A model generated the notes under the pieces. That model ran no database searches. It worked only from the letters and a program-made list of their open reading frames with translations, and had not been told where the DNA came from. A program made the position numbers and the translations under genes. A stretch of 64,000 bases of DNA from an uncultured candidate division Zixibacteria bacterium (GTDB lineage: Bacteria; Zixibacteria; MSB-5A5; RBG-16-43-9), in the NCBI GenBank assembly GCA_963713865.1, contig OY970208.1, forward strand, positions 1,888,001 through 1,952,000, read 5' to 3'. Positions 10,355 to 33,127 of the stretch are shown one piece after another; position 1 is the stretch's first letter, and every line of letters begins with the position of its first letter.

Positions 10355-10360
10355 TTCAAT

Positions 10361-10435
10361 CGGGGCGTAGCGCAGCCTGGGTAGCGCACTTGCTTGGGGT
10401 GCAAGTGGTCGTCCGTTCAAATCGGATCGCCCCGA
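10361..10435 (+). tRNA. tRNA-Pro(GGG)
   Basis: CGGGGCG acceptor, CTTGC-TTGGGGT-GCAAG anticodon arm, GTTCAAATC. Confidence 0.95.
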
Positions 10436-10465
10436 TAAAAGGAGATTCCGAAATAGGAGGCAAAG

Positions 10466-10942
10466 ATGAAGAAGTATATTTTCATTGCCATCTGTGTTTC
10501 TCTGCTAGCTGTAGCTGTGAGTTGCCGAAGCGGGAGAGACATTGAAGCTGAAAAAACTAAGGTCAAAGCAGTCCTGGATAGCTACATAACAAGTATTGAG
10601 AATGAAGACATGGGACTGTATTCCAGGATCATCATGCATGACCCAGACATGGTGAATTTCGGCACTGCCGTCACCGATCGCATCGTCGGGTGGGACGCTT
10701 TGAGAAATGCAATTAAAGCTCAAAATGCCGCTTTGTCGGAGACAAAGATCACTCAGAGCGATGTTACCATTAATCTGTCACCTGACGGGCAGTTTGCGTG
10801 GGCGACATCCCTATGGAATTTCAAAGCTACAATGGGAGCGCAAGCCATTGATCTGCCAGTTCGCTGCACTTGGATTCTGGAAAAACGCAATAAGGACTGG
10901 GAAATTGTTCATTTTCATAAGTCCATAGGCGCAGCATTCTAA
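10466..10942 (+). CDS. SnoaL/NTF2-like lipoprotein
   Basis: Lipobox AVSC; RCTWILEKRNKDWEIVHFHKS C-terminus; GGAGG RBS. Confidence 0.8.
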   Translation: MKKYIFIAICVSLLAVAVSCRSGRDIEAEKTKVKAVLDSYITSIENEDMGLYSRIIMHDPDMVNFGTAVTDRIVGWDALRNAIKAQNAALSETKITQSDVTINLSPDGQFAWATSLWNFKATMGAQAIDLPVRCTWILEKRNKDWEIVHFHKSIGAAF

Positions 10943-10960: not shown

Positions 10961-11012
10961 CTTGCTTGGGGTGCAAGTGGTCGTCCGTTCAAATCGGATC
11001 GCCCCGATAAAA
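10961..11012 (+). repeat. attR-like 52-bp exact duplicate of tRNA-Pro(GGG) 3' half (copy of 10389-10440)
   Basis: CTTGCTTGGGGTGCAAGTGGTCGTCCGTTCAAATCGGATCGCCCCGATAAAA occurs twice. Confidence 0.92.
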
Positions 11013-11048
11013 ATAAATAATTTTATGCAAGTATTAGTAAAAATTAGG

Positions 11049-11124
11049 ATGTTTGCATTGCCTCTATTACTCCAATTTGGGGGTATATACGCAATGCAGA
11101 TATGAACGAGTTATGCGCTATGCT
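11049..11124 (+). mobile_element. Partial integron attC-like site
   Basis: TGCATTGC...GCAATGCA stem then ATATGAACGA-GTTATGC; GTTATGCGCTATGCT is complementary (3 mismatches) to AGCACAGCGCGTAAT at 13064-13078. Confidence 0.6.
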
Positions 11125-11191
11125 AGTCTCCAATCTATAATATTATTTTACTAATAAACAATTATTCATTAAAAAAATCAAATAGATATTT

Positions 11192-12187
11192 ATGAAAAAA
11201 CAATTAATCGATACCGTAGAATACAAAGAGAAAATCATTGATGTCCCTTTATCACAAATCGAATTGAATAATCTAAATCCAAGGAGAAGGTTTGTTGATA
11301 CAGAGGAGGATGTGTTAATAGAATCAATATTATCGAAAGGTATGTTAAATCCAATTATTGTATATAAAAGGCAAAAAGATAACCGATACGTAATTTTGGA
11401 TGGCGAAAGAAGATTCAAAGCATTTAAGAAATTAAACAAGCCACATATCTCGTGTCATGTTTTAGAAAAAGAGCCAACAGAATTAGAAAATTTATCAATG
11501 ATGTTTCATATCCATAATGTAAGAGAAGAATGGACCGACTTTGCAATTGCTCACACGTTGGTAAAAGTAATTTTTGAAATGGGAAAGGATTTGAGGCACT
11601 TAGGGCGTCAAGATAAATTACAGTTATCCCAATTAACTTCTCTTTCTGAGTACAAAATTAATAAATATTTGATTTTCTATGATTATCCAAAAAGCATAAT
11701 TACTAAGTTTATGGAATCTGAGGTGAAAGAGATTCCAGACAAAGGGATGGATCCTGATATACTGGCAGAAATGCATGCGCCTATAAAGCTTATTGAAAAT
11801 GAACTCCCAGATTTTTTGAAAGAATATAACAAAGAAAAAATAATTGATGCATGCGTAAGAAAAAAAGCAAATGGTATTATCAAAACAAATAGAGATTTTA
11901 GGATGCTGACAAAATCTCTATCCGCAATGAAAAAAGGGGGAGTCAGAAAAGAGGTTATGTTTGATAAATTAGTATCATTTATCAAGGATTTGGAAGTTAC
12001 TCCGCAAAATATTTTTGAAGAAACATCAGAGACTATTTATCAAATAGACTCAATTCTTAAAAAGACAGATACATTAATTAAAGAAGTGCAAAACTTAAAT
12101 CTGAATCAAATAACAAGACATGAAAAAGGCAGATTAGAGAGAAATTTAAAAAAACTGACTGATTTATTAAGAACTAAATTAAGATAA
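11192..12187 (+). CDS. ParB/Srx N-terminal domain protein (orphan, no parA)
   Basis: NPRR...ESI...GMLNPIIV...YVILDGERRFKA; AT-rich. Confidence 0.85.
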   Translation: MKKQLIDTVEYKEKIIDVPLSQIELNNLNPRRRFVDTEEDVLIESILSKGMLNPIIVYKRQKDNRYVILDGERRFKAFKKLNKPHISCHVLEKEPTELENLSMMFHIHNVREEWTDFAIAHTLVKVIFEMGKDLRHLGRQDKLQLSQLTSLSEYKINKYLIFYDYPKSIITKFMESEVKEIPDKGMDPDILAEMHAPIKLIENELPDFLKEYNKEKIIDACVRKKANGIIKTNRDFRMLTKSLSAMKKGGVRKEVMFDKLVSFIKDLEVTPQNIFEETSETIYQIDSILKKTDTLIKEVQNLNLNQITRHEKGRLERNLKKLTDLLRTKLR

Positions 12188-12188
12188 C

Positions 12189-13025
12189 TTGCTAATGCTC
12201 GATGAAATTAAGGATCAGTTTAAAAAGAATGGCTACATAGAGTCACCAGGTTATAATTTACCTAAATCTTTGCTTTGGCAACCAGACTTAGTCTTCTCAA
12301 AAAATAATTACACATATCTTATTCTCGTTAAAAGTAATAATTCTATTCCCCCCTCCTTTCTTAATAGAATCTCAAATATACCTAAAGACACGATAATTCC
12401 GCTGATTGTCTTTGCTCAAAAATTAAAGGATAAAGAAGAAAAGGGTATACTATCGCTCGGTATAAGTATAGCCTATTTTATTAGGGGGAGACTTGTAAAA
12501 TTTACCTTTAAGAAAAAGAAGCCACGGAAAATCGTTAAGAGAGATATAAGAAACAAATTAAAAGCTATTGATATTTTCATAAGCTCTAAACAAGATATTG
12601 TTGAAAGAGAATTTGTAAAAAGTAGAATTAATTATTTAAGGGATACCAATAATTATCCTTTTTTCCTACATATGATTGAATACGACAAATTCGAAATGTC
12701 AAAACTATATAAGCACATCAAAACTGAAATGTGCAAATGCGAATGGATTATAGTTTTATTGGGAAATCACTATTCTCCAATTGTTAAGTATGAAATGAGA
12801 AAAGCTCTAACAGTTATAGAGCATAATAACTATTTCATGTTTGTGAAATCGACCAATAATTGTCGCATAGCATGGGAAAAGGAATTAGACGAAGTAAAAC
12901 AATATAACACTATTCACTATATTCCTTATGCAAATTTAAATGATTTAGAAGTTAATCTATCTAGAGCTGTAAATAAAAGAATGTATCAAATTTGCAAGAA
13001 AGAAAAGGTTGAGATATTTGTTTAA
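12189..13025 (+). CDS. Hypothetical protein: PD-(D/E)xK-like N-terminus plus DUF4062/TIR-like C-terminus
   Basis: WQPDLVF...LILVK; DIFISS...ERE...WIIVLLGNHYSPIVKYE; 1 nt after ParB stop. Confidence 0.55.
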   Translation: MLMLDEIKDQFKKNGYIESPGYNLPKSLLWQPDLVFSKNNYTYLILVKSNNSIPPSFLNRISNIPKDTIIPLIVFAQKLKDKEEKGILSLGISIAYFIRGRLVKFTFKKKKPRKIVKRDIRNKLKAIDIFISSKQDIVEREFVKSRINYLRDTNNYPFFLHMIEYDKFEMSKLYKHIKTEMCKCEWIIVLLGNHYSPIVKYEMRKALTVIEHNNYFMFVKSTNNCRIAWEKELDEVKQYNTIHYIPYANLNDLEVNLSRAVNKRMYQICKKEKVEIFV

Positions 13026-13161
13026 ATGCAAATTTATGACTTTATCATAGCCTTTATTCAGGAAGCACAGCGCGTAATAGAGCAAACAACGGCGCTTCCT
13101 TTGTTGATGAAGGATAATTATGATTATCTGGGTGATTCTGAGTGGTCAAACTGCTCTTTTT

Positions 13162-13219
13162 AGTTAATGAAAACAATCTTAGTCCTTATTCCGGCTTTTA
13201 ATGCGGAGAAAACCATTTC
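13162..13219 (+). pseudogene. Diverged duplicate of the 5' end of the glycosyltransferase gene (14768-14825)
   Basis: 53/58 nt identical; encodes MKTILVLIPAFNAEKTIS. Confidence 0.88.
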
Positions 13220-13226
13220 CGCAATA

Positions 13227-13370: not shown

Positions 13371-14366
13371 ATGCTTTTAAATCATCTAAAAACAGTTATG
13401 CATAACATAAGAATACCAAAGCATATCCGGCATAATTTTAAAACCATCAATCCAGATAAAATGAACGAATTACGAGAAATACTCAGGGAAGAGTATTTTA
13501 AAAACATTAAATACTCCATTGGAGTTACTTCAGAAAATTATCTTGCGACAGCAGAAGGCAAAACTGACGTTGAAAATCATACGGTTAATAGATTAAATGT
13601 TTTCAGGAACACGGTCGTCCCCTGGTTAGATTCATTAAAAAAATTATCCTCATCCAAAATACTTGAAATAGGTTGTGGAACAGGGTGCTCTACTTTAGCA
13701 CTTGCAGAACAAGGTGCCATTGTCACAGGAATTGATATAGACGAAGCAAGCATCAGGGTGGCAAAATTTCGAGCCAATTTGTATGGCGTTGATTACACCC
13801 TCCTTCAAGAAAATGCCACACGCATTGATCGATTCAGCAAACAATCTTTTGATTTAGTAATATTTTTTGCGTCACTTGAACACATGACTATTGATGAGAG
13901 AATCGAGGCCTTGAAAAAAGCGTGGGATTTACTATCAGCCGGCAGTATCCTGGTTGTAATCGAAACGCCGAATCGACTTTGGTTCCGGGATGAGCATGCC
14001 TCTCTTCTTCCATTTTTTCATTGGCTGCCGGATCAACTCGCTTTTTATTATTCCTCTAGGAGTCAGAGGATTAATTTCTACCGCTTCTCAAATGACTTAG
14101 GCAGCCAGGTGCCGATGACATTTCATAGACTCGGAAGGGGGGTAAGCTATCATGAATTCGAAATAGCAATTGGTAAAAATGCTAAATTGAAAGTTATTGG
14201 AGACCTTGATTCGTTCTTAGCAAAGAGATCCATAAATCCACTCCTTAAGCTAAAGAGAAAAATATCCAAGGGAAATAGATATTATAAATTAATTAAAAGT
14301 CTAAATCCGTTCGTACATAGTTCGTTTTTTCGTCAGGAACTGAATTTGGCTATTATCAAAGAATAA
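13371..14366 (+). CDS. Class I SAM-dependent methyltransferase (UbiG-like)
   Basis: ILEIGCGTG, GIDID, FDLVIFFASLEH, ETPNR. Confidence 0.88.
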   Translation: MLLNHLKTVMHNIRIPKHIRHNFKTINPDKMNELREILREEYFKNIKYSIGVTSENYLATAEGKTDVENHTVNRLNVFRNTVVPWLDSLKKLSSSKILEIGCGTGCSTLALAEQGAIVTGIDIDEASIRVAKFRANLYGVDYTLLQENATRIDRFSKQSFDLVIFFASLEHMTIDERIEALKKAWDLLSAGSILVVIETPNRLWFRDEHASLLPFFHWLPDQLAFYYSSRSQRINFYRFSNDLGSQVPMTFHRLGRGVSYHEFEIAIGKNAKLKVIGDLDSFLAKRSINPLLKLKRKISKGNRYYKLIKSLNPFVHSSFFRQELNLAIIKE

Positions 14367-14751: not shown

Positions 14752-14772
14752 TGTTCTGGTTGCAGCAAGTTA

Positions 14773-15438
14773 ATGAAAAAAATCTTAGTTCTAATTCCAG
14801 CTTTTAATGCCGAGAAAACCATTTCTCCGCTCATAGAGCAGATTTCAGCTAATAGTATAAAAAAAGAAGATATTTTAGTTATAGATGATGGCTCTCTGGA
14901 TTCGACTTATGAGATTGTAAAAAAATGTGACGTTAAGATTATTCAGCACCAAAAAAACAAAGGCAAGGGGGAGGCTTTGAAAACGGGGTTTGGGTATACC
15001 CTGCGGGAAGGGTATTCAGGGGTAATTACTTTAGATGCGGATTTACAGCATGATCCAAAATTCATTCCGGAATTTATCAAAAAAGCAAACTCAGATATAC
15101 TTGTCGGGACAAGGAATATCAGGCTAAAAATTATGCCTTTTCCCAGATGGTTATCTAATAATCTAACTTCTATAATTGTATCTATTTTAGGAGATACTAA
15201 AGTCAGGGACAGCCAATCCGGTTACAGGTATATCTCTGCAGAGGTTTTAAAAACTGTCAGATTGAGGACTAAGAAATATGAGCTTGAGTCAGAACTATTA
15301 ATAAAAGCCGGAAGAAGAAAATTCAAAATTGATCCGGTGCCGATAAGCACAATTTATAAAGGAAGCAAAAGTTTCATAAATCCTCTTGTGGATACAGGAA
15401 GATTTATTAAATTAATGTGGAAAAGTCTTTTCTGGTGA
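14773..15438 (+). CDS. Glycosyltransferase family 2 (DPM1-like)
   Basis: IPAFN, VIDDGSLD, NKGKG, TLDADLQHDP, DSQSGYR; ATG 14773 preferred over 14719. Confidence 0.92.
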   Translation: MKKILVLIPAFNAEKTISPLIEQISANSIKKEDILVIDDGSLDSTYEIVKKCDVKIIQHQKNKGKGEALKTGFGYTLREGYSGVITLDADLQHDPKFIPEFIKKANSDILVGTRNIRLKIMPFPRWLSNNLTSIIVSILGDTKVRDSQSGYRYISAEVLKTVRLRTKKYELESELLIKAGRRKFKIDPVPISTIYKGSKSFINPLVDTGRFIKLMWKSLFW

Positions 15439-16798: not shown

Positions 16799-17126
16799 GT
16801 GAGTAACAACAAGCTATACGTAGGCAACCTGAGCTACATGACTGGTGAGGAGAAGCTCAGAGAAGCTTTTTCGGCCTACGGAACTGTAACCTCCATCACC
16901 ATAATCGAAGGAAAAGGATTCGGGTTTGTGGAGATGGAAACCGGTGAAGCCGCCCAGAGTGCCAAAGAGGCTCTGGATGGGAAAGAACTGGATGGTCGTA
17001 ACATCAAGGTGGACGAAGCCAGGCCCAGGGCCAAAAAGAAGCGGCGGCGGTGGCGGTGGATATGGAGGAGGGGGTGGTAGAGGAGGAGGGGACAGGGATT
17101 TTAAAAGAAGACGACCCAGATATTAA
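16799..17126 (+). CDS. RRM RNA-binding protein with Gly-rich tail (apparent +1 frameshift at about 17028)
   Basis: KLYVGNLSY, KGFGFVEM, GRNIKVDEARP; GGGGGYGGGG tail lies in the next frame. Confidence 0.9.
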
Positions 17127-17881: not shown

Positions 17882-17955
17882 CGGGGCGTGGCTCAGCCTG
17901 GTAGAGCACTTGGTTCGGGACCAAGGTGTCGTCCGTTCAAATCGGACCGCCCCGA
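17882..17955 (+). tRNA. tRNA-Pro(CGG)
   Basis: CTTGG-TTCGGGA-CCAAG anticodon arm, GTTCAAATC; TTGACA upstream at 17833. Confidence 0.95.
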
Positions 17956-18001: not shown

Positions 18002-18508
18002 ATGAAAGCAAAAGAAATGAAGAAAGAAGCAAAGAAAGAATTAAAGGAAGAAGGAAAAAAGGTTTTCATTGGAGTAATCGGTGCTGGTACCTGTTCCAAG
18101 AAAATCCATAGTACCGCAGTTGATGTAGGCAAATATATCGCCAAAGCAGGAGGAATCCTGGTTTGTGGTGGACTTGGCGGAGTGATGGAAGGGGCGGCTC
18201 AAGGAGCTAAGGAAAATGACGGGATAACTATAGGAATAATCCCTGGCGAAAACAGGGAAGAAGCTAATTCCTATATCGATTTTCCGATTGTAACCGGTTT
18301 TGGTGAAGGAAGGAATTTGATGGTTATCCGCAGTTCTGACGTTATCATCGCTTTGCCCGGTAAATATGGTACGTTGTCCGAGTTAGCCTTCTGCCTCAAA
18401 TTAGGTAAACCCGTAATCAGCATAAGCACTTGGGATGTCTCAGAGAGAATTATTAAAGCCAAAGATCCTAAAGAGGCAGTTAAGTTAGCCTTAGAACAAA
18501 TTAAGTAG
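18002..18508 (+). CDS. TIGR00725/LOG-family Rossmann-fold protein
   Basis: IGVIG, CGGLGGVMEGA, GEGRN, GKYGTLSELAF; ORF-track start at 17879 runs through the tRNA. Confidence 0.88.
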   Translation: MKAKEMKKEAKKELKEEGKKVFIGVIGAGTCSKKIHSTAVDVGKYIAKAGGILVCGGLGGVMEGAAQGAKENDGITIGIIPGENREEANSYIDFPIVTGFGEGRNLMVIRSSDVIIALPGKYGTLSELAFCLKLGKPVISISTWDVSERIIKAKDPKEAVKLALEQIK

Positions 18509-18510
18509 AG

Positions 18511-18795
18511 ATGAGCCCGGATAAGGTTACTGCACATATAATTGTTTCAGGAATAGTTCAAGGCGTAGGCTTCCGCTATTTTGTCTATCGTAAAGCAGGA
18601 GAATACAACCTTAAAGGTTATGTAAGAAATCTGCATAACGAAGATGTCGAGATAGAGGTTGAAGGTGACAAGGGGATGATACTGGATTTTATAAAGGATT
18701 TGAAAATAGGTCCACGTTCAGCTCACGTAACCGGAGTAAATATCGAGTGGCTGGAACATAAAAATAGTTATTCTGATTTTCAGATAAGATTTTAA
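18511..18795 (+). CDS. acyP: Acylphosphatase
   Basis: VSGIVQGVGFRYF, GYVRN, GP. Confidence 0.95.
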   Translation: MSPDKVTAHIIVSGIVQGVGFRYFVYRKAGEYNLKGYVRNLHNEDVEIEVEGDKGMILDFIKDLKIGPRSAHVTGVNIEWLEHKNSYSDFQIRF

Positions 18796-18818
18796 TTGGC
18801 TTCTTGAAAGGAGATAAG

Positions 18819-19346
18819 ATGGCTCAAGATTTAAAAAGGCTAATCAGAAATGTCAAAGATTACCCGAAACCGGGAGTAATATTCAGGGATATCACTACTT
18901 TGCTTAAGAATGGAAAAGCATTTAAACGTGCTGTAGAGCTATTATATAAAAAATATAAAAACGAAAAAATCGATCTGATAGCTGCGGTGGAATCCAGAGG
19001 ATTTATCCTGGGAGGAGCCTTAGCTAACCAGATGGGAGTTGGTTTTATACCCATTCGAAAATTTGGAAAACTACCAGCAGATCGGATCGAGGAAAAATAT
19101 GATTTGGAATACGGAACCGATACTCTGGAAATTCACCGGGATGCAGTAAAAAAAAGACAGAGAGTTTTGGTTGTGGATGACCTTTTAGCCACAGGTGGAA
19201 CTCTCCAGGCCACTTGCAAGCTCATAGAAAAATTAGGAGGAAAGGTAGCTGGTATTCTGGTATTAATTGAGTTATCCTTCCTTAAAGGAAGGGAAAAACT
19301 CAAAAACTACGACCTTTTCTCTTTGATTAAGTACCATAAGGAGTAA
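18819..19346 (+). CDS. apt: Adenine phosphoribosyltransferase
   Basis: DYPKPGVIFRDIT, ESRGF, LEYG, VVDDLLATGGT. Confidence 0.97.
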   Translation: MAQDLKRLIRNVKDYPKPGVIFRDITTLLKNGKAFKRAVELLYKKYKNEKIDLIAAVESRGFILGGALANQMGVGFIPIRKFGKLPADRIEEKYDLEYGTDTLEIHRDAVKKRQRVLVVDDLLATGGTLQATCKLIEKLGGKVAGILVLIELSFLKGREKLKNYDLFSLIKYHKE

Positions 19347-19383
19347 AGTATAGTCTATAAAGCTTTTTTGGATGGGGGAAGGG

Positions 19384-19414
19384 ACTAATCACCAATCACT
19401 ATTCACTAATCACT
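19384..19414. repeat. Heptamer tandem repeat (ACYAWTC)n
   Basis: ACTAATC ACCAATC ACTATTC ACTAATC; similar at 50711-50745 and 15459-15493. Confidence 0.7.
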
Positions 19415-19423
19415 GCCTTTTCC

Positions 19424-19498
19424 GCCCCCGTAGCTCAGTTTGGATAGAGCAGCAGTTTCCTAAACTGTTGGCCGCCCGTTCAAGTCGGGCCGGGGGTA
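19424..19498 (+). tRNA. tRNA-Arg(CCT)
   Basis: GCAGT-TTCCTAA-ACTGT anticodon arm, GTTCAAGTC. Confidence 0.95.
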
Positions 19499-19624
19499 GA
19501 AATACAGATTAAAATTTGAGGTTTGGAGTTTATAGAAAAAAATTAAAAAAATGCTTGCCAAAAGAAAAACAGGTTTATATATTTAAAACTTAAATTGTGA
19601 GGTGAACCAAAAACTCAAAAAGGA

Positions 19625-21040
19625 GTGAGCCAGATGAAGTTAAAACTAACCCTTACAATCGGTTTGCTGGTCCTGGTCTTTGTCAACCTGGGATATCCTC
19701 AGGTTACAGTAACCAGAAACATTCTCGATTACAATTTCTTAGGAGGAGGAGCAAGGGCAAGAGCAATGGGAGGAGCTTTTTTTGCTGTATCAGATGACCC
19801 ATCCGCTGGCAGCTGGAATCCAGCCGGCCTGGTTCAGTTAGACAAATACCAGATGGGAGCAACTCTTTACTTCATAAATCCTAAAATGGATTATATTACC
19901 AGCTATACCACCTCTTCCTTTCCCAATTCATTAAAACAGACTAAATCCACTCTCTCTTTTGGCAGCGTAGTCATTCCATTCAAGCTTTTTAACAAGGATT
20001 TAGTCGGAAGCGTTCTTTATAACCGGGCTTCAGATATTTATGATAAACGTGTATATAATTTCTTGGGTGTTTATACTTATGGAGAAGTCTCTGTTAGAAT
20101 CTGGGATAAAACAGAAGAGGTTAAAGGAGGGCTTGATGTAGTAGTTCTTTCTCTGGGAGGTAAAGCCTATAAAGATTTATCCTTTGGTTTAGGTATAAAT
20201 GTTTATACTGGAAGTTATGAATATAATTCTGGACAATTAATAGATGTCAGCTGGGATGCAATATCCGATACGTCAGTTTACTACCACCCATATATAAAAG
20301 GAAGTTATTCCGGTGTTAATTTCGCCTTGGGCACGATGTATAAATATCAGGATTTAAGAGTTGGAGCAGTTGTGAAAACTCCTTTTAAATTAAAAGAGAA
20401 AGATGATGTTCAATATGTTTATGATATGATCGTGGATGGAGTAGTTAATCCTTATTCGATTCAATATGGAATAATCTGGCCTGTTGAATACAAACAGAAA
20501 TGGGAAATTCCTCTGATGATTGGATTTGGAGCTTCATATCAAATAAAAGGACTTACCTTAGCAGGGGATGTAGAGTTGAGGGATTTCAGTAGTTCAAAGT
20601 TGTTCTATCCGAAAAAATGGTGGGACCCTAATTCACCTGATACCTCTATTGCTTTAGATTGGAATTCCTTAACTCAATTCAGAATCGGAGGCGAATACTT
20701 ATTCCACAGCAAATATGGTACCATACCATTAAGAGCGGGTTTTAGAAACGACCCTAAGGTGTTTTCAGATTTGAAGAACGTAGAAATAAACTTCCCTTCT
20801 TCCATTAGTGGAAAAGACGAAATAACCATAATCAATCAGAAGAACGGAGATAAAGTCTCAGGGAACACCATCTCTTTGGGAACCGGAATAGGCTGGAAAC
20901 AGATAAAACTTGATTTTACTTATGAGTTAAGCCAGTATAAGACCGAGATGAGTGGTGAAAACTTAGGGGTTCCTTTTGATATTAAAGATATTGAGAAAAA
21001 AGATAATCGATTTCTGGTGAATTTCACCGGATTCTTTTAA
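19625..21040 (+). CDS. Outer-membrane beta-barrel, FadL/OmpP1/PorV-like
   Basis: Signal peptide, GARARAMGGAF.AV.DD.SA..WNPAGL, terminal Phe. Confidence 0.85.
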   Translation: MSQMKLKLTLTIGLLVLVFVNLGYPQVTVTRNILDYNFLGGGARARAMGGAFFAVSDDPSAGSWNPAGLVQLDKYQMGATLYFINPKMDYITSYTTSSFPNSLKQTKSTLSFGSVVIPFKLFNKDLVGSVLYNRASDIYDKRVYNFLGVYTYGEVSVRIWDKTEEVKGGLDVVVLSLGGKAYKDLSFGLGINVYTGSYEYNSGQLIDVSWDAISDTSVYYHPYIKGSYSGVNFALGTMYKYQDLRVGAVVKTPFKLKEKDDVQYVYDMIVDGVVNPYSIQYGIIWPVEYKQKWEIPLMIGFGASYQIKGLTLAGDVELRDFSSSKLFYPKKWWDPNSPDTSIALDWNSLTQFRIGGEYLFHSKYGTIPLRAGFRNDPKVFSDLKNVEINFPSSISGKDEITIINQKNGDKVSGNTISLGTGIGWKQIKLDFTYELSQYKTEMSGENLGVPFDIKDIEKKDNRFLVNFTGFF

Positions 21041-25947: not shown

Positions 25948-26913
25948 ATGCTTCTCACGACCAGCGTAGGCAGCTTTCCCAAACCAGACTACTTGGCTAA
26001 GGCTCGAACACAGTTCTCGCGGGGTGAAATTACTCAAGAAGAGTTACATCTTTTAGAGAGAAAAGCAACGGCTGAGGTCATAAAATTCCAGGAGGAGATA
26101 GGCATAGATATACTTGTCCATGGCGAGATGGAAAGGGGGGATATGACCACCTATTTTGCAGAGATATTAGAAGGGTTCGGTATTAGCGGACTGGTTCGCT
26201 CCTACGGAAATAGATATTATAGAAAACCGGTTATCTTGGGAAAAGTAAAAAGAAATACCCCGATGACAGTTGAAACCTTTAAGTATGCTCAGAGCTTGAC
26301 TCCAAAACCGGTTAAAGGTATGCTCACCGGACCTTATACTATGATGGACTGGTCTTTTAATGAGTATTATCCCTCCAGAAAAGATACGGCTTTAGCTTTA
26401 GCTGAAGTAATCCATCAGGAAGTTTTCGACTTGGAAAAAGCCGGGGCTAAATATATTCAGATAGATGAGCCCGCCTTATCCACGCGGCCAGAGGAGATAG
26501 ATTTAGCCATAGAGGCCATGGCTATAGTTACCAGAGGGATAAAAGCAAAAACTATCAGTCATATCTGTTATGGTGATTTCTCTAAAATCTATCCGAGACT
26601 TTTGGATTTTCCGGTTGATCAGCTTGACTTGGAGTTTGCCAATAGCAATTTCTCCAATTTAGACCTCTTCAGAAATCCCAAATTTACCAAAGAGATTGCA
26701 GTCGGAGTAATAGATGTGCATAGTCATAGAATCGAGACTAAAGAGCAGGTAAAAGCCAATATTAAAAAAGCTTTAGAAGTTTTTCCTTTAGAGAAAGTCT
26801 ATATCGACCCGGATTGCGGGCTGAAAACCAGAACTGTAGAAGAAGCCCAGGCTAAGCTTAAAGTAATGGTTGAAGCTGTGCGGGAAGTCAAGAAAGAATT
26901 GGGAATTGAGTAG
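25948..26913 (+). CDS. metE: Cobalamin-independent methionine synthase, catalytic half (split MetE)
   Basis: TTSVGSFP, VHGEMER.DM, KGMLTGP, QIDEPA, HICYG, GVIDVHS, PDCGLKTR. Confidence 0.9.
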   Translation: MLLTTSVGSFPKPDYLAKARTQFSRGEITQEELHLLERKATAEVIKFQEEIGIDILVHGEMERGDMTTYFAEILEGFGISGLVRSYGNRYYRKPVILGKVKRNTPMTVETFKYAQSLTPKPVKGMLTGPYTMMDWSFNEYYPSRKDTALALAEVIHQEVFDLEKAGAKYIQIDEPALSTRPEEIDLAIEAMAIVTRGIKAKTISHICYGDFSKIYPRLLDFPVDQLDLEFANSNFSNLDLFRNPKFTKEIAVGVIDVHSHRIETKEQVKANIKKALEVFPLEKVYIDPDCGLKTRTVEEAQAKLKVMVEAVREVKKELGIE

Positions 26914-26960
26914 CGCGACCCTTTTAGGGTCGCAATGCGAGGCTGAAAGCCTCGCGCTAC
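26910..26960. repeat. GTAG-type REP doublet overlapping the metE stop
   Basis: GTAGCGCGACCC-TTTTA-GGGTCGC AAT GCGAGGC-TGAAA-GCCTCGCGCTAC. Confidence 0.8.
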
Positions 26961-26968
26961 GAAATAAC

Positions 26969-28802
26969 ATGACAAATCAATTTATAGAAAAACTGCAAAA
27001 AGGTGTCCTGCTCTGCGATGGGGCAATGGGGACACTGCTTTATACCAGGGGAGTTTCCTATTACCAGTGCTTTGATGAGCTGAACCTATCCAACCCTAAA
27101 GTTGTCCAGAAAGTCCATCAGGATTATATCAAAGCTTGCGCAGGGATAATTGAGACCAATACCTTTGGCGCAAACCGTTTCAAATTAGCCACTCACGGGT
27201 TTGAGGAGAAAGTTAGGGAGATAAACCTGAAGGGTGCAAAAATAGCGCGTGAAGCCAGAGAGATAGAGGGAAAAGATATCTTCGTAGCCGGTTCAATCGG
27301 ACCAATAGGGCAGAGGGTTTATCCATTTGGGGAGATAACCTTAAAGCAAGTCCGGGAGGCTTTTTTAGAGCAGGCAGAAGGGCTTTTAGAGGGTGGAGTG
27401 GATTTATTCATAGTTGAGACCATATCTGATCTCAGGGAGATGAAAGAAGCAGTCTTTGCCATCCGGAGTATCTGCCAGCTGCCGATTATGGCTTCAATGA
27501 CCTTTGGAGAGGATGGGAAAACCCTGATGGGTAACACCCCTGAAGAAGTGACCGAGGTTTTGGATAAATTGGAAGTAGAGGTAATTGGAGGCAATTGCAG
27601 TGTGGGTCCTTTGAAGATGTATGAGGTGATCCAGAACAATGAAAAGCAGGACCACAAAATTCATCTCCGCCCAGCCCAATGCCGGTTTGCCTCATTTTGT
27701 AGAGGGAAGATACATCTATCTTACCTCCCCGGAGTATATGGCAGAATATACCGAGAGATTCATCCGTGCCGGAGTTAATATCGTCGGCGGCTGCTGCGGC
27801 ACGACTCCCGAGCATATCAAGATGATGTCTCAGGTTATTAAAAAATTGAATTCCGGGATTACATCCAGAACCGAGCCTGATATCTATTTGGAAGAGGAGG
27901 TCGAAGAGGAAAAAATAGAAATCCCCCTGATGGAGCTTTCGCCTTTTGCCCGGAATCTCGGTAAGAAATTTCTGGTCTCAGTAGAAATCGACCCGCCTAA
28001 AGGAACCAATCCGGAGAAGATAATTCAGGTGGCTGAAAAGCTGAAGAAAAAAGGAATCGACGCGGTCAATATCGCTGACAGCCCCATGGCAAAGGTGAGA
28101 ATGGGCTGTCTCTCCCTGGCTTATCTTTTGAGAGAAAAGACCGGGATAGACGTTATTCTCCATTTAACCTGTAGAGACAGGAATTTAATGGGTCTGCAGT
28201 CAGACCTTATAGGTGCGCATGCCTTAGGCATAAGAAATATCCTGGCTATCACCGGTGACCCGCCCAGCCTGGGCGATTATCCTCATATGACCGCAGTTTA
28301 TGATGTTGACTCTATTGGTTTGGTAAAGATTATCCAGAAATTGAATATGGGAACAGACTGGGCAGGAAATTCCATTGGCTCACCCACATCTTTTTTCGCC
28401 GGGGTGGGAGTTGACCCGAATGCTGAAGACTGGGACAGGGAATTAGACCGACTCAGGGAAAAAGAAAAAGCCGGAGCAAATTTTATCTTTACCCAGCCGC
28501 TTTATGATTTAGAAACCTTAGAGAGATTTTTCAGAAGAATAGAAGGAATAAAACTGCCGATTATCATTGGTTTACTCCCGTTACAAAGCACTAGACATAC
28601 GGAATTCCTCCACAACGAAGTCCCCGGAATCAGAATCCCGGATAAGATAAGGGAGAGGATGAAACAAGCAGGGGAGAGGGGCGCACAGGAAGGGGTGCAA
28701 ATCTGCAAAGAGCTTTTAAAAGAAGCAAAATCCTTAGTCTCCGGAGTTTATTTAATTCCTTCTTTTGGCAGGTTTGAACAGGTTTTAGAGGTGATAGAAT
28801 GA
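26969..28802 (+). CDS. Bifunctional homocysteine S-methyltransferase/methylenetetrahydrofolate reductase (YitJ-like), apparent frameshift at about 27635
   Basis: DGAMGT, ETNTFGAN, GNCS.GP, then in the next frame QPNAGLP, GGCCGTTP, EIDPPKG, HLTCRDRN, TGDP, TQP. Confidence 0.92.
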
Positions 28803-29835: not shown

Positions 29836-30414
29836 ATGGACTCAAAAGAAACGAAGTGGGGGTTTCCAAAAGGAAAAGTAGCCTCGACGCTCAAAAATAT
29901 TCTTTCCAAAGAGTTTACAAATAAAGACATTGATACTATTGCTGTTGTGCTAATGCTTCGTTCCATGGTCGAATTATCAATTGAAAGGGTATTGTTTTTA
30001 ATGTTAAATTATGAATATCCACATTACGGCAAAGGGATGAACCCAAAAGAGACCCAAAAATACAAAATTCTAAATGAAAAAATGGAAGATGAACTTTGGA
30101 AAGTTATTGTTGGAATGAACTTTCACGTAAAACTTTCATTAATCGAGCCTTGCCTCAAGGTTTGGTACCCTGGTTTTGAAAAAACCATAAAAGAAATAAA
30201 TAGAGTGAGAAACAAGATAGCTCATTTAAATAAACTGAAAAGCTTAAAATTCAAAAATAAATTAATATGGAGCGAGGAGGGTATTGAAGAGTTTTTTGTT
30301 ACAGCTCAGATCACCACTAAGGAGATCAACAAGTTTTGTGAACGAATAGAAGAACGAAACGAAGCCATTAAAGATACGCTTAGAGAGATGCATTTAAGGC
30401 GACAAACAAGTTAA
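29836..30414 (+). CDS. HEPN-domain protein (MtlR-like)
   Basis: Helical; MVELSIE, MNF..KL, INRVRNKIAH (R-x4-H). Confidence 0.65.
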   Translation: MDSKETKWGFPKGKVASTLKNILSKEFTNKDIDTIAVVLMLRSMVELSIERVLFLMLNYEYPHYGKGMNPKETQKYKILNEKMEDELWKVIVGMNFHVKLSLIEPCLKVWYPGFEKTIKEINRVRNKIAHLNKLKSLKFKNKLIWSEEGIEEFFVTAQITTKEINKFCERIEERNEAIKDTLREMHLRRQTS

Positions 30415-30418
30415 TAAA

Positions 30419-30446
30419 ACGTCCTATAATATATATTATGTAAACA
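30419..30446 (+). other. dif: Chromosomal dif site (XerC/XerD)
   Basis: ACGTCCTATAA-TATATA-TTATGTAAACA; 3 mismatches from B. subtilis dif as recalled; located at the strand switch. Confidence 0.88.
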
Positions 30447-30479
30447 TAAAAGCAGATAAATTAATAATGTAAAATTATT

Positions 30480-30514
30480 AAGCCCGAATCCTGGTAATTC
30501 AGGTTCGGGCTTTT
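30480..30514. terminator. Intrinsic (possibly bidirectional) terminator
   Basis: AAGCCCGAATC...GGTTCGGGCTTTT between convergent genes. Confidence 0.7.
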
Positions 30515-30634
30515 CCTCATTTCCCTCTTCCCTATTGATGTATCTGGACCTGGTCCGCCTAAGGACAGAATCCACCTCAGGCGGATTCTGTCCCTACAAT
30601 CTGAACAATCTGCTTGGAAGGCTAAAGCCTTCCG

Positions 30635-33127
30635 CTACTTAATCACGATATTCAAAATCTTATTCGGAACGTAGATTATCTTTACAATCTTTTTATCTTT
30701 TGTATGAGCTTGTACCTTTTCATCATTTAAAGCAATAGTTTCAACCGCTTTCTGATCGGAATTTATAGGCACATTAAATGTAGCTCTGAGCTTGCCGTTG
30801 ATCTGGACCGCTATGGTCACTTCATCCTCTATAACCGCATTTTTGTCATATTCAGGCCATTCAGACTTGAATATGCTTTCATTATGACCCATTTCATGCC
30901 AGATTTCTTCAGCCAAATGAGGTGCAAAAGGAGACAGAAGCTGCGCTGTTCTTTCCACAAAATACGGCAAGAACTCATATCTTTCCGTATCGGGAATAAC
31001 ATAAAGCTGTTCATCTAAAGTATTCAACAGTTCCATCATAGAAGCAATAGCTGTGTTCAGATCAAGACTTTCTATATCTCCAGTAACTTTCTTGATAGTT
31101 TGATGCAGTTTCCTGTATACGGGTTTATAAGTCTTTATATTCCAATCAGATAATATGCCAGATTTAGAGTATTTGTTTACATCAACTTTATAAGTATCTA
31201 TGCATACTTTTGCAAAATCGTAAATGCGTGTCAAAAATCTCCTTGCACCAGTAATACCCTCTCCTGTCCACAGGATTTCTTTACCTGAAGGAGCTGCAAA
31301 ATAAACAGCAATTCTGGAGACATCCACTCCGTTTTGCTCCATCAAATCCAATGGCGAAATAGCATTCCCCTTGGATTTGGACATAATCTCACCCTTGGAA
31401 TCCAAAACCATACCGTGATTGAAAAGCTCCAAAACCGGCTCATCTACTTTTAACCAGCCAAGATCATACAGGACCTTGGTGAAAAACCTGAAATACAACA
31501 GATGACCAGTAGCGTGTTCAATCCCTCCTATATATTTATCCACCGGCATCCATTTTTTAGCCTTTTCCCTGGAAAACGGCTCTTTATCGTTATGCGGGTC
31601 TGTGTATCTGAAAAGATACCAGGAAGAGCAGACAAAGGTATCCATAGTATCAGGGTCTCGTTCAGCTTTACCCTTGCAATTCGGGCAGGTAGTTTCTATA
31701 AATTCTTTCACATCAGAGAGAGGAGAACGACCTTTAGGTATAAAGTCTATATTACCCCTGGGCAGTAGAACCGGTAACTCAGATTCAGGCACAGGCAGAA
31801 TCCCGCATTTCTTACAGTGAATCATCGGAATGGGTGCACCCCAGTACCTCTGACGGGAGATCAGCCAGTCCCTCAATTTGAAATTAGTCTTCTTTTTACC
31901 TAAGCTTTTCTCCTCGATATAATCATTTATTTTTTCTATCCCGTCAGTTGACCAGAGTCCATTAAATATTCCAGAATTAACCATAGTTCCAGGGTCCTCG
32001 AATGCTTTCTCCATTGTCTCAGTCTTAAGATTTTCACCCTCAGGCTGGATTACAACTTTGATCGGGATATTGTATCTTTTGGCAAACTCGAAATCCCTCT
32101 GGTCGTGCCCGGGAACACCCATCACCATACCGGTTCCATAAGTCGCTACCACATACTCTGCTACCCAGAGCTGGACTTTTTCGCCTGATAAAGGATTTAT
32201 GGCATACCTTCCGGTAAATACTCCATTCTTCTCCCCTGCCAATGAGGACCTTTCGATATCCGTTTTCTGAAGGGCTTTATTTATATAATCATCAACAGCT
32301 TTTTTATGTTGTGGTTCTATCTTCATATTTCTCAATAGCTCATTTTCAGGTGCAATAGCCATAAAGGTAACCCCGTAAATAGTATCCGGACGGGTAGTGA
32401 AAACGGAAAGCTTCTCTTCTGTTTTCTCCACTTTGAAATCTATCTCCACTCCCTGGCTTTTGCCAATCCAGTTCCTCTGCATTATCTTTACATTTTCAGG
32501 CCATCCAGACAGCTTATCTAAATCGTTTAATAATCTCTCAGCATAAGCTGTGATCTTGAAAAACCACTGCTCTAATTCTTTTTTGGTAACCTCAGAATGA
32601 CATCTCCAGCATTCCCCCTGGATAACCTGTTCGTTGGCCAAAACGGTATTACAGTGTGGACACCAGTTTACCAGGGATTTCCCTCGATAAGCCAAATTAT
32701 TCTTATAGAGTTGAATGAAGATCCATTGAGTCCACTTATAATAGTCCGGCATACAGGTCAAGACTTCCCTGTCCCAGTCAAAGCTCACCCCGGTTTTCTT
32801 CAGAGTTGCACGGGAGTTCTCAATGTTTTTTAAAGTCCATTTCTCAGGGTCCTCTCCCCTCTTTATGGCTGCTTCCTCAGCCGGAAGTCCAAAAGCATCC
32901 CAGCCAAAAGGATGCAAGACGTCGTAACCCTGCATCATCTTATAGCGGGCAATCACGTCGCCAATTATATAATTTCTAAAATGTCCGATATGAATGTCAC
33001 CGGATGTATAGGCGAACATCACTAACATATAAAACTTTTTCAAGGGGTCATCCGAAGCTTTATAGAGCCTGGATTCCTCCCATTTCTTCTGCCATTTTTC
33101 TTCTATTTCCTTAAAAGGATAGTTCAT
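30635..33127 (-). CDS. leuS: Leucyl-tRNA synthetase
   Basis: HIGH, GWDAFGLPAE, FTTRPDT, DWLISRQRYWG, MSKSKGN. Confidence 0.97.
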   Translation of the reverse strand: MNYPFKEIEEKWQKKWEESRLYKASDDPLKKFYMLVMFAYTSGDIHIGHFRNYIIGDVIARYKMMQGYDVLHPFGWDAFGLPAEEAAIKRGEDPEKWTLKNIENSRATLKKTGVSFDWDREVLTCMPDYYKWTQWIFIQLYKNNLAYRGKSLVNWCPHCNTVLANEQVIQGECWRCHSEVTKKELEQWFFKITAYAERLLNDLDKLSGWPENVKIMQRNWIGKSQGVEIDFKVEKTEEKLSVFTTRPDTIYGVTFMAIAPENELLRNMKIEPQHKKAVDDYINKALQKTDIERSSLAGEKNGVFTGRYAINPLSGEKVQLWVAEYVVATYGTGMVMGVPGHDQRDFEFAKRYNIPIKVVIQPEGENLKTETMEKAFEDPGTMVNSGIFNGLWSTDGIEKINDYIEEKSLGKKKTNFKLRDWLISRQRYWGAPIPMIHCKKCGILPVPESELPVLLPRGNIDFIPKGRSPLSDVKEFIETTCPNCKGKAERDPDTMDTFVCSSWYLFRYTDPHNDKEPFSREKAKKWMPVDKYIGGIEHATGHLLYFRFFTKVLYDLGWLKVDEPVLELFNHGMVLDSKGEIMSKSKGNAISPLDLMEQNGVDVSRIAVYFAAPSGKEILWTGEGITGARRFLTRIYDFAKVCIDTYKVDVNKYSKSGILSDWNIKTYKPVYRKLHQTIKKVTGDIESLDLNTAIASMMELLNTLDEQLYVIPDTERYEFLPYFVERTAQLLSPFAPHLAEEIWHEMGHNESIFKSEWPEYDKNAVIEDEVTIAVQINGKLRATFNVPINSDQKAVETIALNDEKVQAHTKDKKIVKIIYVPNKILNIVIK

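Follow-up and report, generated by a model that had tools for sequence, protein, structure and literature searches.

What would a chromosomal ParB protein do without ParA, next to a gene for a TIR-like protein? This question is raised by a two-gene cassette in a 64,000-nt stretch of DNA (the window) from an uncultured candidate division Zixibacteria bacterium (GenBank assembly GCA_963713865.1, contig OY970208.1, positions 1,888,001 to 1,952,000 of the forward strand). Gene 1 encodes a ParB-type protein, and gene 2 encodes a two-domain partner. A first-pass annotation, made from the sequence alone, had described the pair as an AT-rich unit with a 1-nt gap, carried as an apparent cassette at a tRNA hotspot, and had proposed it as a new defence system. 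The reading favored here, held with moderate confidence, is that the pair is a mobile, self-contained two-gene conflict system of the abortive-infection type, directed against phages or plasmids. In such a system, a ParB clamp that binds cytidine triphosphate (CTP) would be the sensor or scaffold, and a TIR/DUF4062-like enzyme that cleaves nicotinamide adenine dinucleotide (an NADase) would be the effector. The pair has recognizable domain architectures, conserved motifs, strict pairing, a patchy cross-phylum distribution, and an AT-rich foreign composition. A defence function, contact between ParB and its partner, NADase chemistry, the trigger, and the defence phenotype are what we infer.

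Architecture of the two proteins

Gene 1 encodes a clamp-type ParB, as judged by fold and motifs. Its product matches Pfam ParB_N (1.4e-13), exceeds the cut-off of the partition-family model TIGR00180 (61.5 bits against 58.45, spanning aa 13-177), and matches many PHROG 'ParB-like partition' families, in agreement with the domain first called from the letters. A profile search of PDB sequences returned Noc (3.2e-15), ParB/Spo0J, and KorB. The AlphaFold2 (AF2) model has a predicted local distance difference test (pLDDT) score of 87.4, and Foldseek aligned it with Noc, KorB, and ParB-CDP/CTPgS (E 9e-9 to 1e-6) over 190-240 columns, which correspond to the N-domain and the helix-turn-helix (HTH). 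By TM-score, it comes closest to the KorB chain of the KorB-KorA co-complex (8qa9_A, TMt 0.75).

Homologues of gene 1 fall into 179 clusters (178 non-self), and its motifs were examined in an alignment of 39 homologues that are 52-84% identical to the window protein. The CTP-binding boxes of partition ParBs are all found, apart from a His in place of the first Glu of box III. The NPR motif (N29-P30-R31) is invariant. The GERR motif reported in the first-pass annotation is present in box II as G71-E72-R73-R74; D70, G71, R73, and R74 never vary in the alignment, and E72 is kept in at least 90% of the sequences. It aligns with GERRWRA of Noc, and the motifs align with Spo0J as well. An F-H-x-H-N-x-x-E-E-W block is also invariant; in the box III-like motif H108, N109, E112, and E113 do not vary, and His108 stands where Noc has Glu. 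An HTH is predicted to follow the N-domain from the span of TIGR00180 and the Foldseek coverage, an HTH-like S-L-x-x-Y-K-x-x-K-Y-L stretch is kept in the alignment, and DNA binding is predicted. The C-terminal 150 aa are helical and family-specific. The intact HTH and CTP motifs speak against a nuclease-type ParB, a reading of gene 1 that was considered and rejected.

The His in box III may bear on the nucleotide cycle. According to the available text of PMC8494293, B. subtilis ParB with E78Q or E111Q no longer hydrolyzes CTP but still closes the clamp, and initial results with His substitutions were similar. Through the Noc alignment, H108 would correspond to E111 of B. subtilis ParB, and its invariance could therefore mean slow CTP hydrolysis.

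The partner is more divergent. Its AF2 model is confident (pLDDT 91.4, predicted TM-score 0.77), and the window protein has no significant Pfam, NCBIfam, PHROG, or PADLOC family, only a trace of DUF4062. Its profile returned 0 matches at E<=10 among PDB chain sequences. An exhaustive profile search of 1.84 billion proteins gave a family of 79 representatives at 50% identity, of which 63 reach E<=1e-10; nearly all are 250-320 aa long and matched end to end. The close homologues number 69 (44-72% identity), and a search with the 46-sequence family alignment returned essentially this same set again. Conservation was counted in 66 close homologues, which form the clade of the window protein, and in 46 family representatives that reach down to 16-20% identity and were also scanned one by one against domain families. 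Residue numbers refer to the 276-aa form that starts at ATG 12195.

The C-domain of the partner has a beta-alpha repeat topology at aa 125-269 of the model, consistent with the parallel beta-sheet/alpha-helix fold of TIR domains. DUF4062 was matched by 27 of the 46 representatives at E<=1 (best 3.6e-6), TIR_2 by 22 (best 1.4e-6), and ThsB_TIR by 3. The top PDB matches in Foldseek are the plant TIR domains of RPPT, RPS4, and RPP1 (E 1.5e-4 to 6e-4, TMt 0.51-0.53), and further matches include flavodoxin-like proteins, the CMP N-glycosidase BcmB, a nucleoside deoxyribosyltransferase (NDT), and TIR-STING. Structure matches in BFVD are deoxyribosyltransferases and a TIR effector. Language-model look-alikes, which serve as leads only, are DUF4062 clusters in 23 of 30 named Atlas matches (0.91). 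The C-domain is best described as a divergent relative in the DUF4062/TIR superfamily, with membership in PF13271 below threshold, and the TIR/DUF4062-like character noticed at first reading is borne out to that extent.

The IFISS...E pattern noticed in this domain is likewise real: IFISS occupies residues 127-131, and the Glu is E200, which is invariant in 66/66 close homologues and 46/46 representatives. Across the 46 representatives, R138, E162, and E200 alone are invariant, and S131, E137, and Y245 reach at least 90% conservation. These six positions all belong to the TIR-like domain. In TIR and DUF4062 enzymes, the catalytic Glu is found in the helix after betaC, which is where the model places E200. 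It is thus a candidate equivalent of the catalytic E97/E98/E103/E108 of characterized proteins, and the C-domain is probably NAD-cleaving.

The N-domain has a restriction endonuclease (REase)-type fold. An AHJR-like REase was matched by 3 of the 46 representatives (best E 5.3e-6) and Hjc by 2, and the language-model look-alikes of this part, again leads only, are PDDEXK_3, Mrr_cat, and PDDEXK_11 Atlas clusters (0.87-0.92). In the window's clade, D31 is kept in 57/66, L44 in 66/66, and K/R46 in 66/66, and in the wider family a Glu occurs at position 44 in 13/46 only. The catalytic D...(D/E)xK triad of PD-(D/E)xK nucleases is absent as such, and the 46 representatives have no invariant residue in this domain. 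The PD-x-K-like N-terminus of the first-pass annotation therefore stands as an endonuclease-type fold but not as a conserved active site. Because the PD...ExK motif is degenerate (Leu44 in every close homologue), the N-domain is best understood as a module that binds DNA or protein and has no catalytic activity.

Pairing and distribution of the cassette

Both genes exist as first described, on the same strand, and the gap between them is 1 nt if gene 2 starts at TTG and 7 nt if it starts at the ATG at 12195. The ATG gives the 276-aa form found in the protein database. The TTG start is favored because homologues begin 2-3 residues ahead of the position of this ATG and because the partner genes of other genomes lie 1 nt from the ParB stop or overlap it. 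The AT-richness is also confirmed: the GC content of the cassette is 0.296, compared to 0.405 in each 5-kb flank, and the segment that holds the pair has values of 0.285-0.316 within a surrounding region of 0.38-0.46. The foreign segment spans about 11013-13161, since a copied tRNA end closes it on the left and a hairpin followed by a glycosyltransferase gene remnant closes it on the right. In the leader upstream of gene 1, sigma-70-like promoter matches are no commoner than in shuffled sequence, and the leader has no sequence conservation with the upstream regions of the other loci.

A scan of one genome per species across 185,579 species found five further loci with a partner homologue (L001-L005), which together with the window make six. 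The five are in metagenome-assembled genomes (MAGs) of Ignavibacteriaceae, Melioribacteraceae, Chitinophagaceae (two), and Bacteroidales. In 5/5, a ParB open reading frame (ORF) of 325-333 aa is directly upstream of the partner, 1 nt apart or overlapping, so that the co-occurrence of homologues called for in the first-pass annotation is found. In metagenome-derived protein sets, longest contigs of equal size are common to at least 40 of the 69 partner clusters and a ParB-homologue cluster; this is an indirect lower bound, and the comparison covered 119 of the 178 non-self ParB clusters.

What surrounds the pair is unrelated in every locus, with genes for ValRS, esterases, PorV, ImuB/DnaE2, AraC, two-component kinases, and others. 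At a k-mer length of 9 nt or more, nothing is common to the flanks of more than 3/6 loci, and an all-against-all comparison of the six loci revealed no conserved flanking peptide. Because upstream alignment, k-mers, and flank peptides gave no shared ends, att sites, or third gene, the conserved unit consists of the two ORFs only. The one palindrome that recurs, in L001 and L003, was rejected as a site; it results from a conserved peptide, and the window lacks it.

The GC content of the cassette is below that of both flanks in 6/6 loci (in L005 the left flank measures only 484 nt). The window ParB is 80% identical to that of a Chitinophagaceae MAG and 81% identical to that of an Ignavibacteriaceae MAG. 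Such identity across these MAGs indicates that the cassette has been horizontally transferred, and recently across phyla. ParB is better conserved than its partner (52-85% compared to 44-72% identity).

A prediction of the ParB-partner complex scored 0.45, and the best of three controls scored 0.00. This supports contact between the proteins weakly: the mark for such predictions is reached by 116/157 solved complexes and 2/215 mismatched pairs, but at a score of 0.60 or under it is reached by only 18/157 solved complexes and by both of the passing mismatches. At least 84% of contacts recur between the prediction runs, and the pLDDT of the partner is at least 84.

Relation to known systems and function of the pair

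The nearest named family of the partner is DUF4062, renamed NIR, which is described in the available text of three 2026 preprints as a TIR-like NADase effector of phage defence (10.64898/2026.05.01.722283, 10.64898/2026.06.25.731849, 10.64898/2026.09.04.749371). The systems comprise Swarozyc (KpSwz; 10.64898/2026.05.01.722283), Evangelion, where the conserved Glu changed in Eva01 E87A is required for defence (10.64898/2026.06.25.731849), and NIR-Avs2, Vulcan, and Vesta, where the same holds for the Glu changed in PsAvs2 E108Q, Vulcan E98Q, and VstA E103Q (10.64898/2026.09.04.749371). Across these texts, one conserved Glu is essential in each system, and sensing of the phage falls to a variable auxiliary region or partner. 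The window partner is alike in its effector fold class, in a single invariant Glu whose helix would be the equivalent one by position, in the fusion of the effector to a non-conserved auxiliary region, and in its mobile, patchy occurrence. It differs in the order of its domains, with the effector C-terminal here and DUF4062 N-terminal there, in an auxiliary domain with the AHJR/Hjc-like endonuclease fold, and in its obligate pairing with a ParB-CTPase gene. The word 'ParB' occurs 0 times in the text of the three preprints, figures and supplements aside.

Noc, KorB, and ParB are the best structural and sequence matches of gene 1. Like KorB-KorA of plasmid RK2, Noc, and chromosomal ParB, its product has boxes I-III of the N-domain, GERR included, followed by an HTH, and like KorB-KorA it has a dedicated small partner gene beside the clamp. 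Unlike all of these, it comes without ParA, with a family-specific C-terminal 150 aa, and with His in box III where Noc has Glu. The partner is an endonuclease-fold and TIR-like protein here, unlike the HTH repressor KorA. As claimed at first reading, no parA was found: NCBIfam gave none among 52 ORFs of the window at E<=1e-10, and the Pfam scan of the 23 immediate neighbours in L001-L005 found no ParA/CbiA family member. A nearby parS palindrome and an origin-proximal location, the other marks of a canonical ParABS system, are not seen at the locus either.

ParB-family proteins have also been linked to effectors. For the effector-ParAB systems, the available text of 10.64898/2026.10.19.760177 proposes that a ParB-family protein, in the form of a clamp with bound nucleotide, recognizes invader DNA and cooperates with an effector domain such as a REase, a caspase, or HEPN. 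The cassette resembles them in this proposed division of labor. There, however, ParA is kept and fused to the effector, and ParB lacks the HTH and is predicted to be inactive (10.64898/2026.10.19.760177), whereas the cassette has no ParA, its ParB retains the HTH and nucleotide motifs, and the effector is on a separate protein. It is thus not of the ParA-effector fusion plus HTH-less ParB type, and 'DUF4062' occurs 0 times in the available text of 10.64898/2026.10.19.760177.

A ParB/Srx-fold NTP-binding domain acts as sensor or regulator in PD-Lambda-5_A, Menshen NsnA/SspE/GmrSD (DUF262), DndB, and AbiRii, and gene 1 is like them in this respect; the available text of PMC12065111 assigns ParB-superfamily domains to Menshen NsnA and SspE (DUF262), and that of PMC13064643 to AbiRii. 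These defence ParBs differ from gene 1 in being DUF262-type or methyltransferase-linked and in lacking the canonical ParB HTH, and none of PD-Lambda-5, Menshen, DndB, and AbiRii has a TIR-like partner. The match of gene 1 to PD-Lambda-5_A of PADLOC is limited to the N-domain (best E 1.6e-6, positions 48-119 of 449, or 72 positions), and the partner has no PADLOC match, so that the two proteins of PD-Lambda-5 are not matched over most of their length. With Thoeris and other TIR systems, the partner shares a TIR-superfamily domain with a conserved Glu, including the ThsB_TIR matches mentioned above. Unlike Thoeris, the cassette has no ThsA-like signal-activated effector, and its domain is nearer to DUF4062 and TIR_2 than to ThsB. 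Neither protein matches a PADLOC model of Thoeris, and no ThsA (SIR2/Macro-SLOG)-like neighbour occurs at the loci.

The first-pass annotation had not recognized the pairing as a named system, and this is upheld: PADLOC-DB v2 holds no model for the partner (0 families), and a full-text literature search gave no description of a ParB plus TIR-like pair. The effector class is known. Apparently undescribed are its ParB-CTPase partner, its resolvase-like adaptor, and the reversal of the domain order.

In the favored reading, ParB would bind CTP, load on specific DNA, which could be that of an invader or a cognate site, and serve as a DNA-bound sensor or scaffold. Its accumulation or a change in its state would gather partner molecules, and the endonuclease-fold N-domain would dock the partner to ParB, to DNA, or to both. 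The clustered TIR-like domains would then turn active, with E200 hydrolyzing NAD+ together with R138 and E162, so that NAD+ would be depleted and the infected cell stopped. A more specific version is offered only tentatively: a CTP-gated ParB clamp would be the sensor of abortive infection, either by loading on invader DNA or by reporting the collapse of the CTP pool, and a dead resolvase-like adaptor would nucleate the divergent NADase on DNA.

TIR/DUF4062-type NADases are widespread immune effectors, from bacteria to human TEP1. How infection is sensed is what differs among these systems, and it is the least understood part. ParB-CTPases are recently understood DNA-loading switches that function in segregation (ParB), division control (Noc), and transcription (KorB). 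If the favored reading is true, an operon of ParB and an NADase would be a tractable case of a DNA-clamp switch that controls a metabolic suicide enzyme, and ParB-CTP biology would reach into immunity. It would link, for the first time, a ParB-CTPase switch with HTH intact and no ParA to immunity by NAD+ depletion, and TIR-like enzymes would have a new mode of activation. A defence family would be added from Bacteroidota and Ignavibacteria, which are poorly covered by E. coli-centered screens.

Several observations weigh against this reading. The TIR similarity of the partner is modest (TM ~0.5, E ~1e-4) and common to flavodoxins and nucleoside deoxyribosyltransferases. The window protein scores 13.4 bits with DUF4062 (PF13271; E 0.095), below the cut-off of 24.7, and Pfam-based DUF4062 surveys would for this reason probably miss this partner, as surveys at such thresholds overlook divergent members. 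The partner family is tiny and seen only in Bacteroidota and Ignavibacteria-type MAGs. The evidence of pairing consists of the five genome loci and the close homologue clusters, and the divergent half of the partner family lies outside it. No palindrome that could be a parS-like loading site is conserved across the six loci, although such a site may be divergent or lie farther off. In tblastn searches of 72,556 plasmids and 50,697 phage records, the partner matched nothing. ParB has no phage-record match at 1e-8, and its plasmid matches are distant N-domain matches to plasmid ParBs only (24.8-38.4% identity in the best 15 of 18).

The neighbourhoods also weigh on this side. Among 69 ORFs within 10 kb of the pair in the six loci, PADLOC gave convincing defence neighbours in 1/6 loci, L003. 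In this Chitinophagaceae locus, the pair has a ThsB-like TIR-domain protein (579-1931, E ~5e-7) ~7 kb upstream and an IetA homologue (18502-19677, E 2.5e-83) ~8 kb downstream. Other PADLOC matches near the loci are generic GTPase, methyltransferase, ABC, and response-regulator domains. The enrichment in defence islands that the first-pass annotation had called for did not emerge, and six loci are too few to decide it.

The location among housekeeping genes rather than in defence islands is what a selfish module would also show. The pair could be a toxin-antitoxin or addiction-like module, in which the TIR-like protein is the toxin, ParB is a neutralizer and/or a KorB-like CTP-dependent auto-repressor, and persistence comes from lethal loss rather than from phage protection. 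The compact, translationally coupled operon, with a 1-nt gap or an overlap in 6/6 loci, its mobility, the KorB-KorA complex as the best TM-score match of the ParB model, and the weak complex prediction are all in keeping with this. A 331-aa ParB with a complete CTP switch is nevertheless far more elaborate than typical antitoxins, and its higher conservation relative to the partner is the opposite of what is usual for an antitoxin. Many toxin-antitoxin-like modules also defend, so that this explanation, though unlikely, overlaps with the conflict system favored above.

The fold of the C-domain leaves room for another chemistry within the same conflict logic. It could be a nucleoside/nucleotide N-glycosidase or deoxyribosyltransferase that acts on cytidine or modified nucleotides, perhaps tied to the CTP bound by ParB. 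The Foldseek matches to BcmB (4jen_A, TMt 0.60, E 6.8e-4) and NDT (8pqr_D) point this way, as do viral deoxyribosyltransferases as the top BFVD match (3.8e-5) and a match to CMP/hydroxymethyl-CMP hydrolase. DUF4062 itself is distantly similar in sequence to NDT domains, according to the available text of 10.64898/2026.05.01.722283. By sequence, however, the family is closer to DUF4062 and TIR_2, and no NDT family is among those listed as matches. The text of 10.64898/2026.09.04.749371 describes a DUF4062 domain that had earlier carried a CMP hydrolase annotation and turned out to be an NADase. This chemistry is considered quite improbable.

Very improbable is a housekeeping or element-maintenance role in DNA organization, with an orphan ParB and a non-enzymatic, junction-binding partner in place of ParA serving segregation, silencing, or the nucleoid: the TIGR00180 match, the Noc/ParB/KorB build of gene 1, the likeness of the partner N-domain to Holliday-junction resolvases, and a terminus-like skew switch ~18 kb away suit it, but the cassette is accessory (5 loci in 185,579 species genomes, all at different sites) and foreign in composition in 6/6 loci, no ParA or close plasmid relative was found for it in the searches described above, and the partner's sole invariant residues (R138, E162, and E200) are of the pocket type and fall in the TIR-like domain, a point in favor of an enzyme.

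Chromosomal setting and features of the window

The features of the cassette and its borders are collected in Table 1.

Table 1. Coordinates of the cassette, its domains and motifs, and the adjoining features in the window
Feature	Position	Strand	Remarks
tRNA-Pro(ggg) gene	10360-10436		First 52-nt repeat copy (10389-10440) inside gene
SnoaL_3/DUF4440-like gene	10466..10942		Probably lipoprotein; bracketed by the two tRNA repeat copies
Second, perfect 52-nt copy of tRNA-Pro(ggg) 3' end	10961..11012	+	Left boundary, directly left of cassette
Upstream leader	11013..11191	+	AT-rich, non-coding; presumed to hold promoter
Gene 1, ParB/Noc/KorB-type	11192..12187	+	ATG start, 331 aa; CTP-binding N-domain aa 14-115, HTH/middle ~aa 116-180, helical C-region aa 181-331
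GERR, box II nucleotide-binding motif of ParB	11402..11413	+	G71-E72-R73-R74
Box III-like motif	11513..11530	+	H108-N109-V110-R111-E112-E113; aligns with ENLQREE of Noc
Gene 2, two-domain partner	12189..13025	+	278 aa (TTG) or 276 aa (ATG 12195)
Partner N-domain, REase (AHJR/Hjc-like) fold	12195..12530	+	aa 1-112; catalytic motif degenerate in clade
Partner C-domain, TIR/DUF4062-like alpha/beta	12531..13022	+	aa 113-276
Codon of E200, candidate catalytic Glu	12792-12794	+	Helix alphaC after strand betaC (AF2)
Terminator-like hairpin and T-run	13140..13161	+	3' end of cassette; weak, 2 sites in region compared to a mean of 1.2 in shuffles
~64-nt remnant of glycosyltransferase gene start	13162..13225	+	Right boundary; ~88% identical to upstream region and first ~17 codons of gene at 14768

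The window is core chromosome, and the cassette adjoins a copied tRNA end. Of the tRNA hotspot cassette described at first reading, the part that stands is this neighbour, the copy of the tRNA-Pro(ggg) 3' end. The 52-nt direct repeats enclose a 572-bp unit that contains the SnoaL-like gene alone, not the ParB pair, and the 52 ORFs of the 64-kb window, scanned with NCBIfam, include no integrase. An integrase-borne island at the tRNA was therefore rejected in the form proposed. The repeat-bracketed SnoaL unit looks like the att-site scar of a tRNA-targeted insertion. Among the five other genome loci, a tRNA is nearby in L005 only, where the opposite strand of the Bacteroidales contig carries a tRNA-Arg(tct) gene (2524-2598) ~220 nt downstream from the pair.

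A second proline tRNA gene, tRNA-Pro(cgg) at 17882-17955, sits 7.5 kb downstream of the first. Its 3' end (17927-17955) matches the repeated 29-nt core with 2 mismatches, and the variable segment with the SnoaL gene, the ParB pair, and a methyltransferase gene therefore lies between two related tRNA-Pro genes. tRNA was the only RNA match in an Rfam scan. The start of the glycosyltransferase gene is copied over ~64 nt (13162-13225 compared to 14768-14830), 1.6 kb upstream of the intact gene, and a class-I S-adenosylmethionine methyltransferase gene (13371..14366) is found between the remnant and the intact gene. The remnant suggests a second insertion or duplication event beside the ParB cassette.

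The location near the terminus that the first-pass annotation had assumed is reasonable, because two signals switch at about 30-32 kb of the window, ~18 kb from the locus. GC skew turns from plus to minus there, and gene orientation changes from all-plus to all-minus at 30.4/30.6 kb, between the gene at 29836..30411 and leuS (30638..33127). The region ~30400-32000 thus carries a signature like that of a replication terminus.

Two further genes of the window have irregular reading frames. A gene for an RRM-type RNA-binding protein (16799..17126) has an odd K/R/W-rich tail in its own frame, and the overlapping frame 16926..17126 encodes a Gly-rich (GGGGGGYGGGGGRGGG) tail typical of RRM-type proteins. 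The two frames part near an A-run at ~17033-17040, possibly through a frameshift or sequencing error. A homocysteine S-methyltransferase/methylenetetrahydrofolate reductase gene (NF006396) is split into overlapping ORFs at 26870..27775 and 27639..28799, which match profile positions 2-225 and 221-600 and may reflect a frameshift, a pseudogene, or an assembly error.

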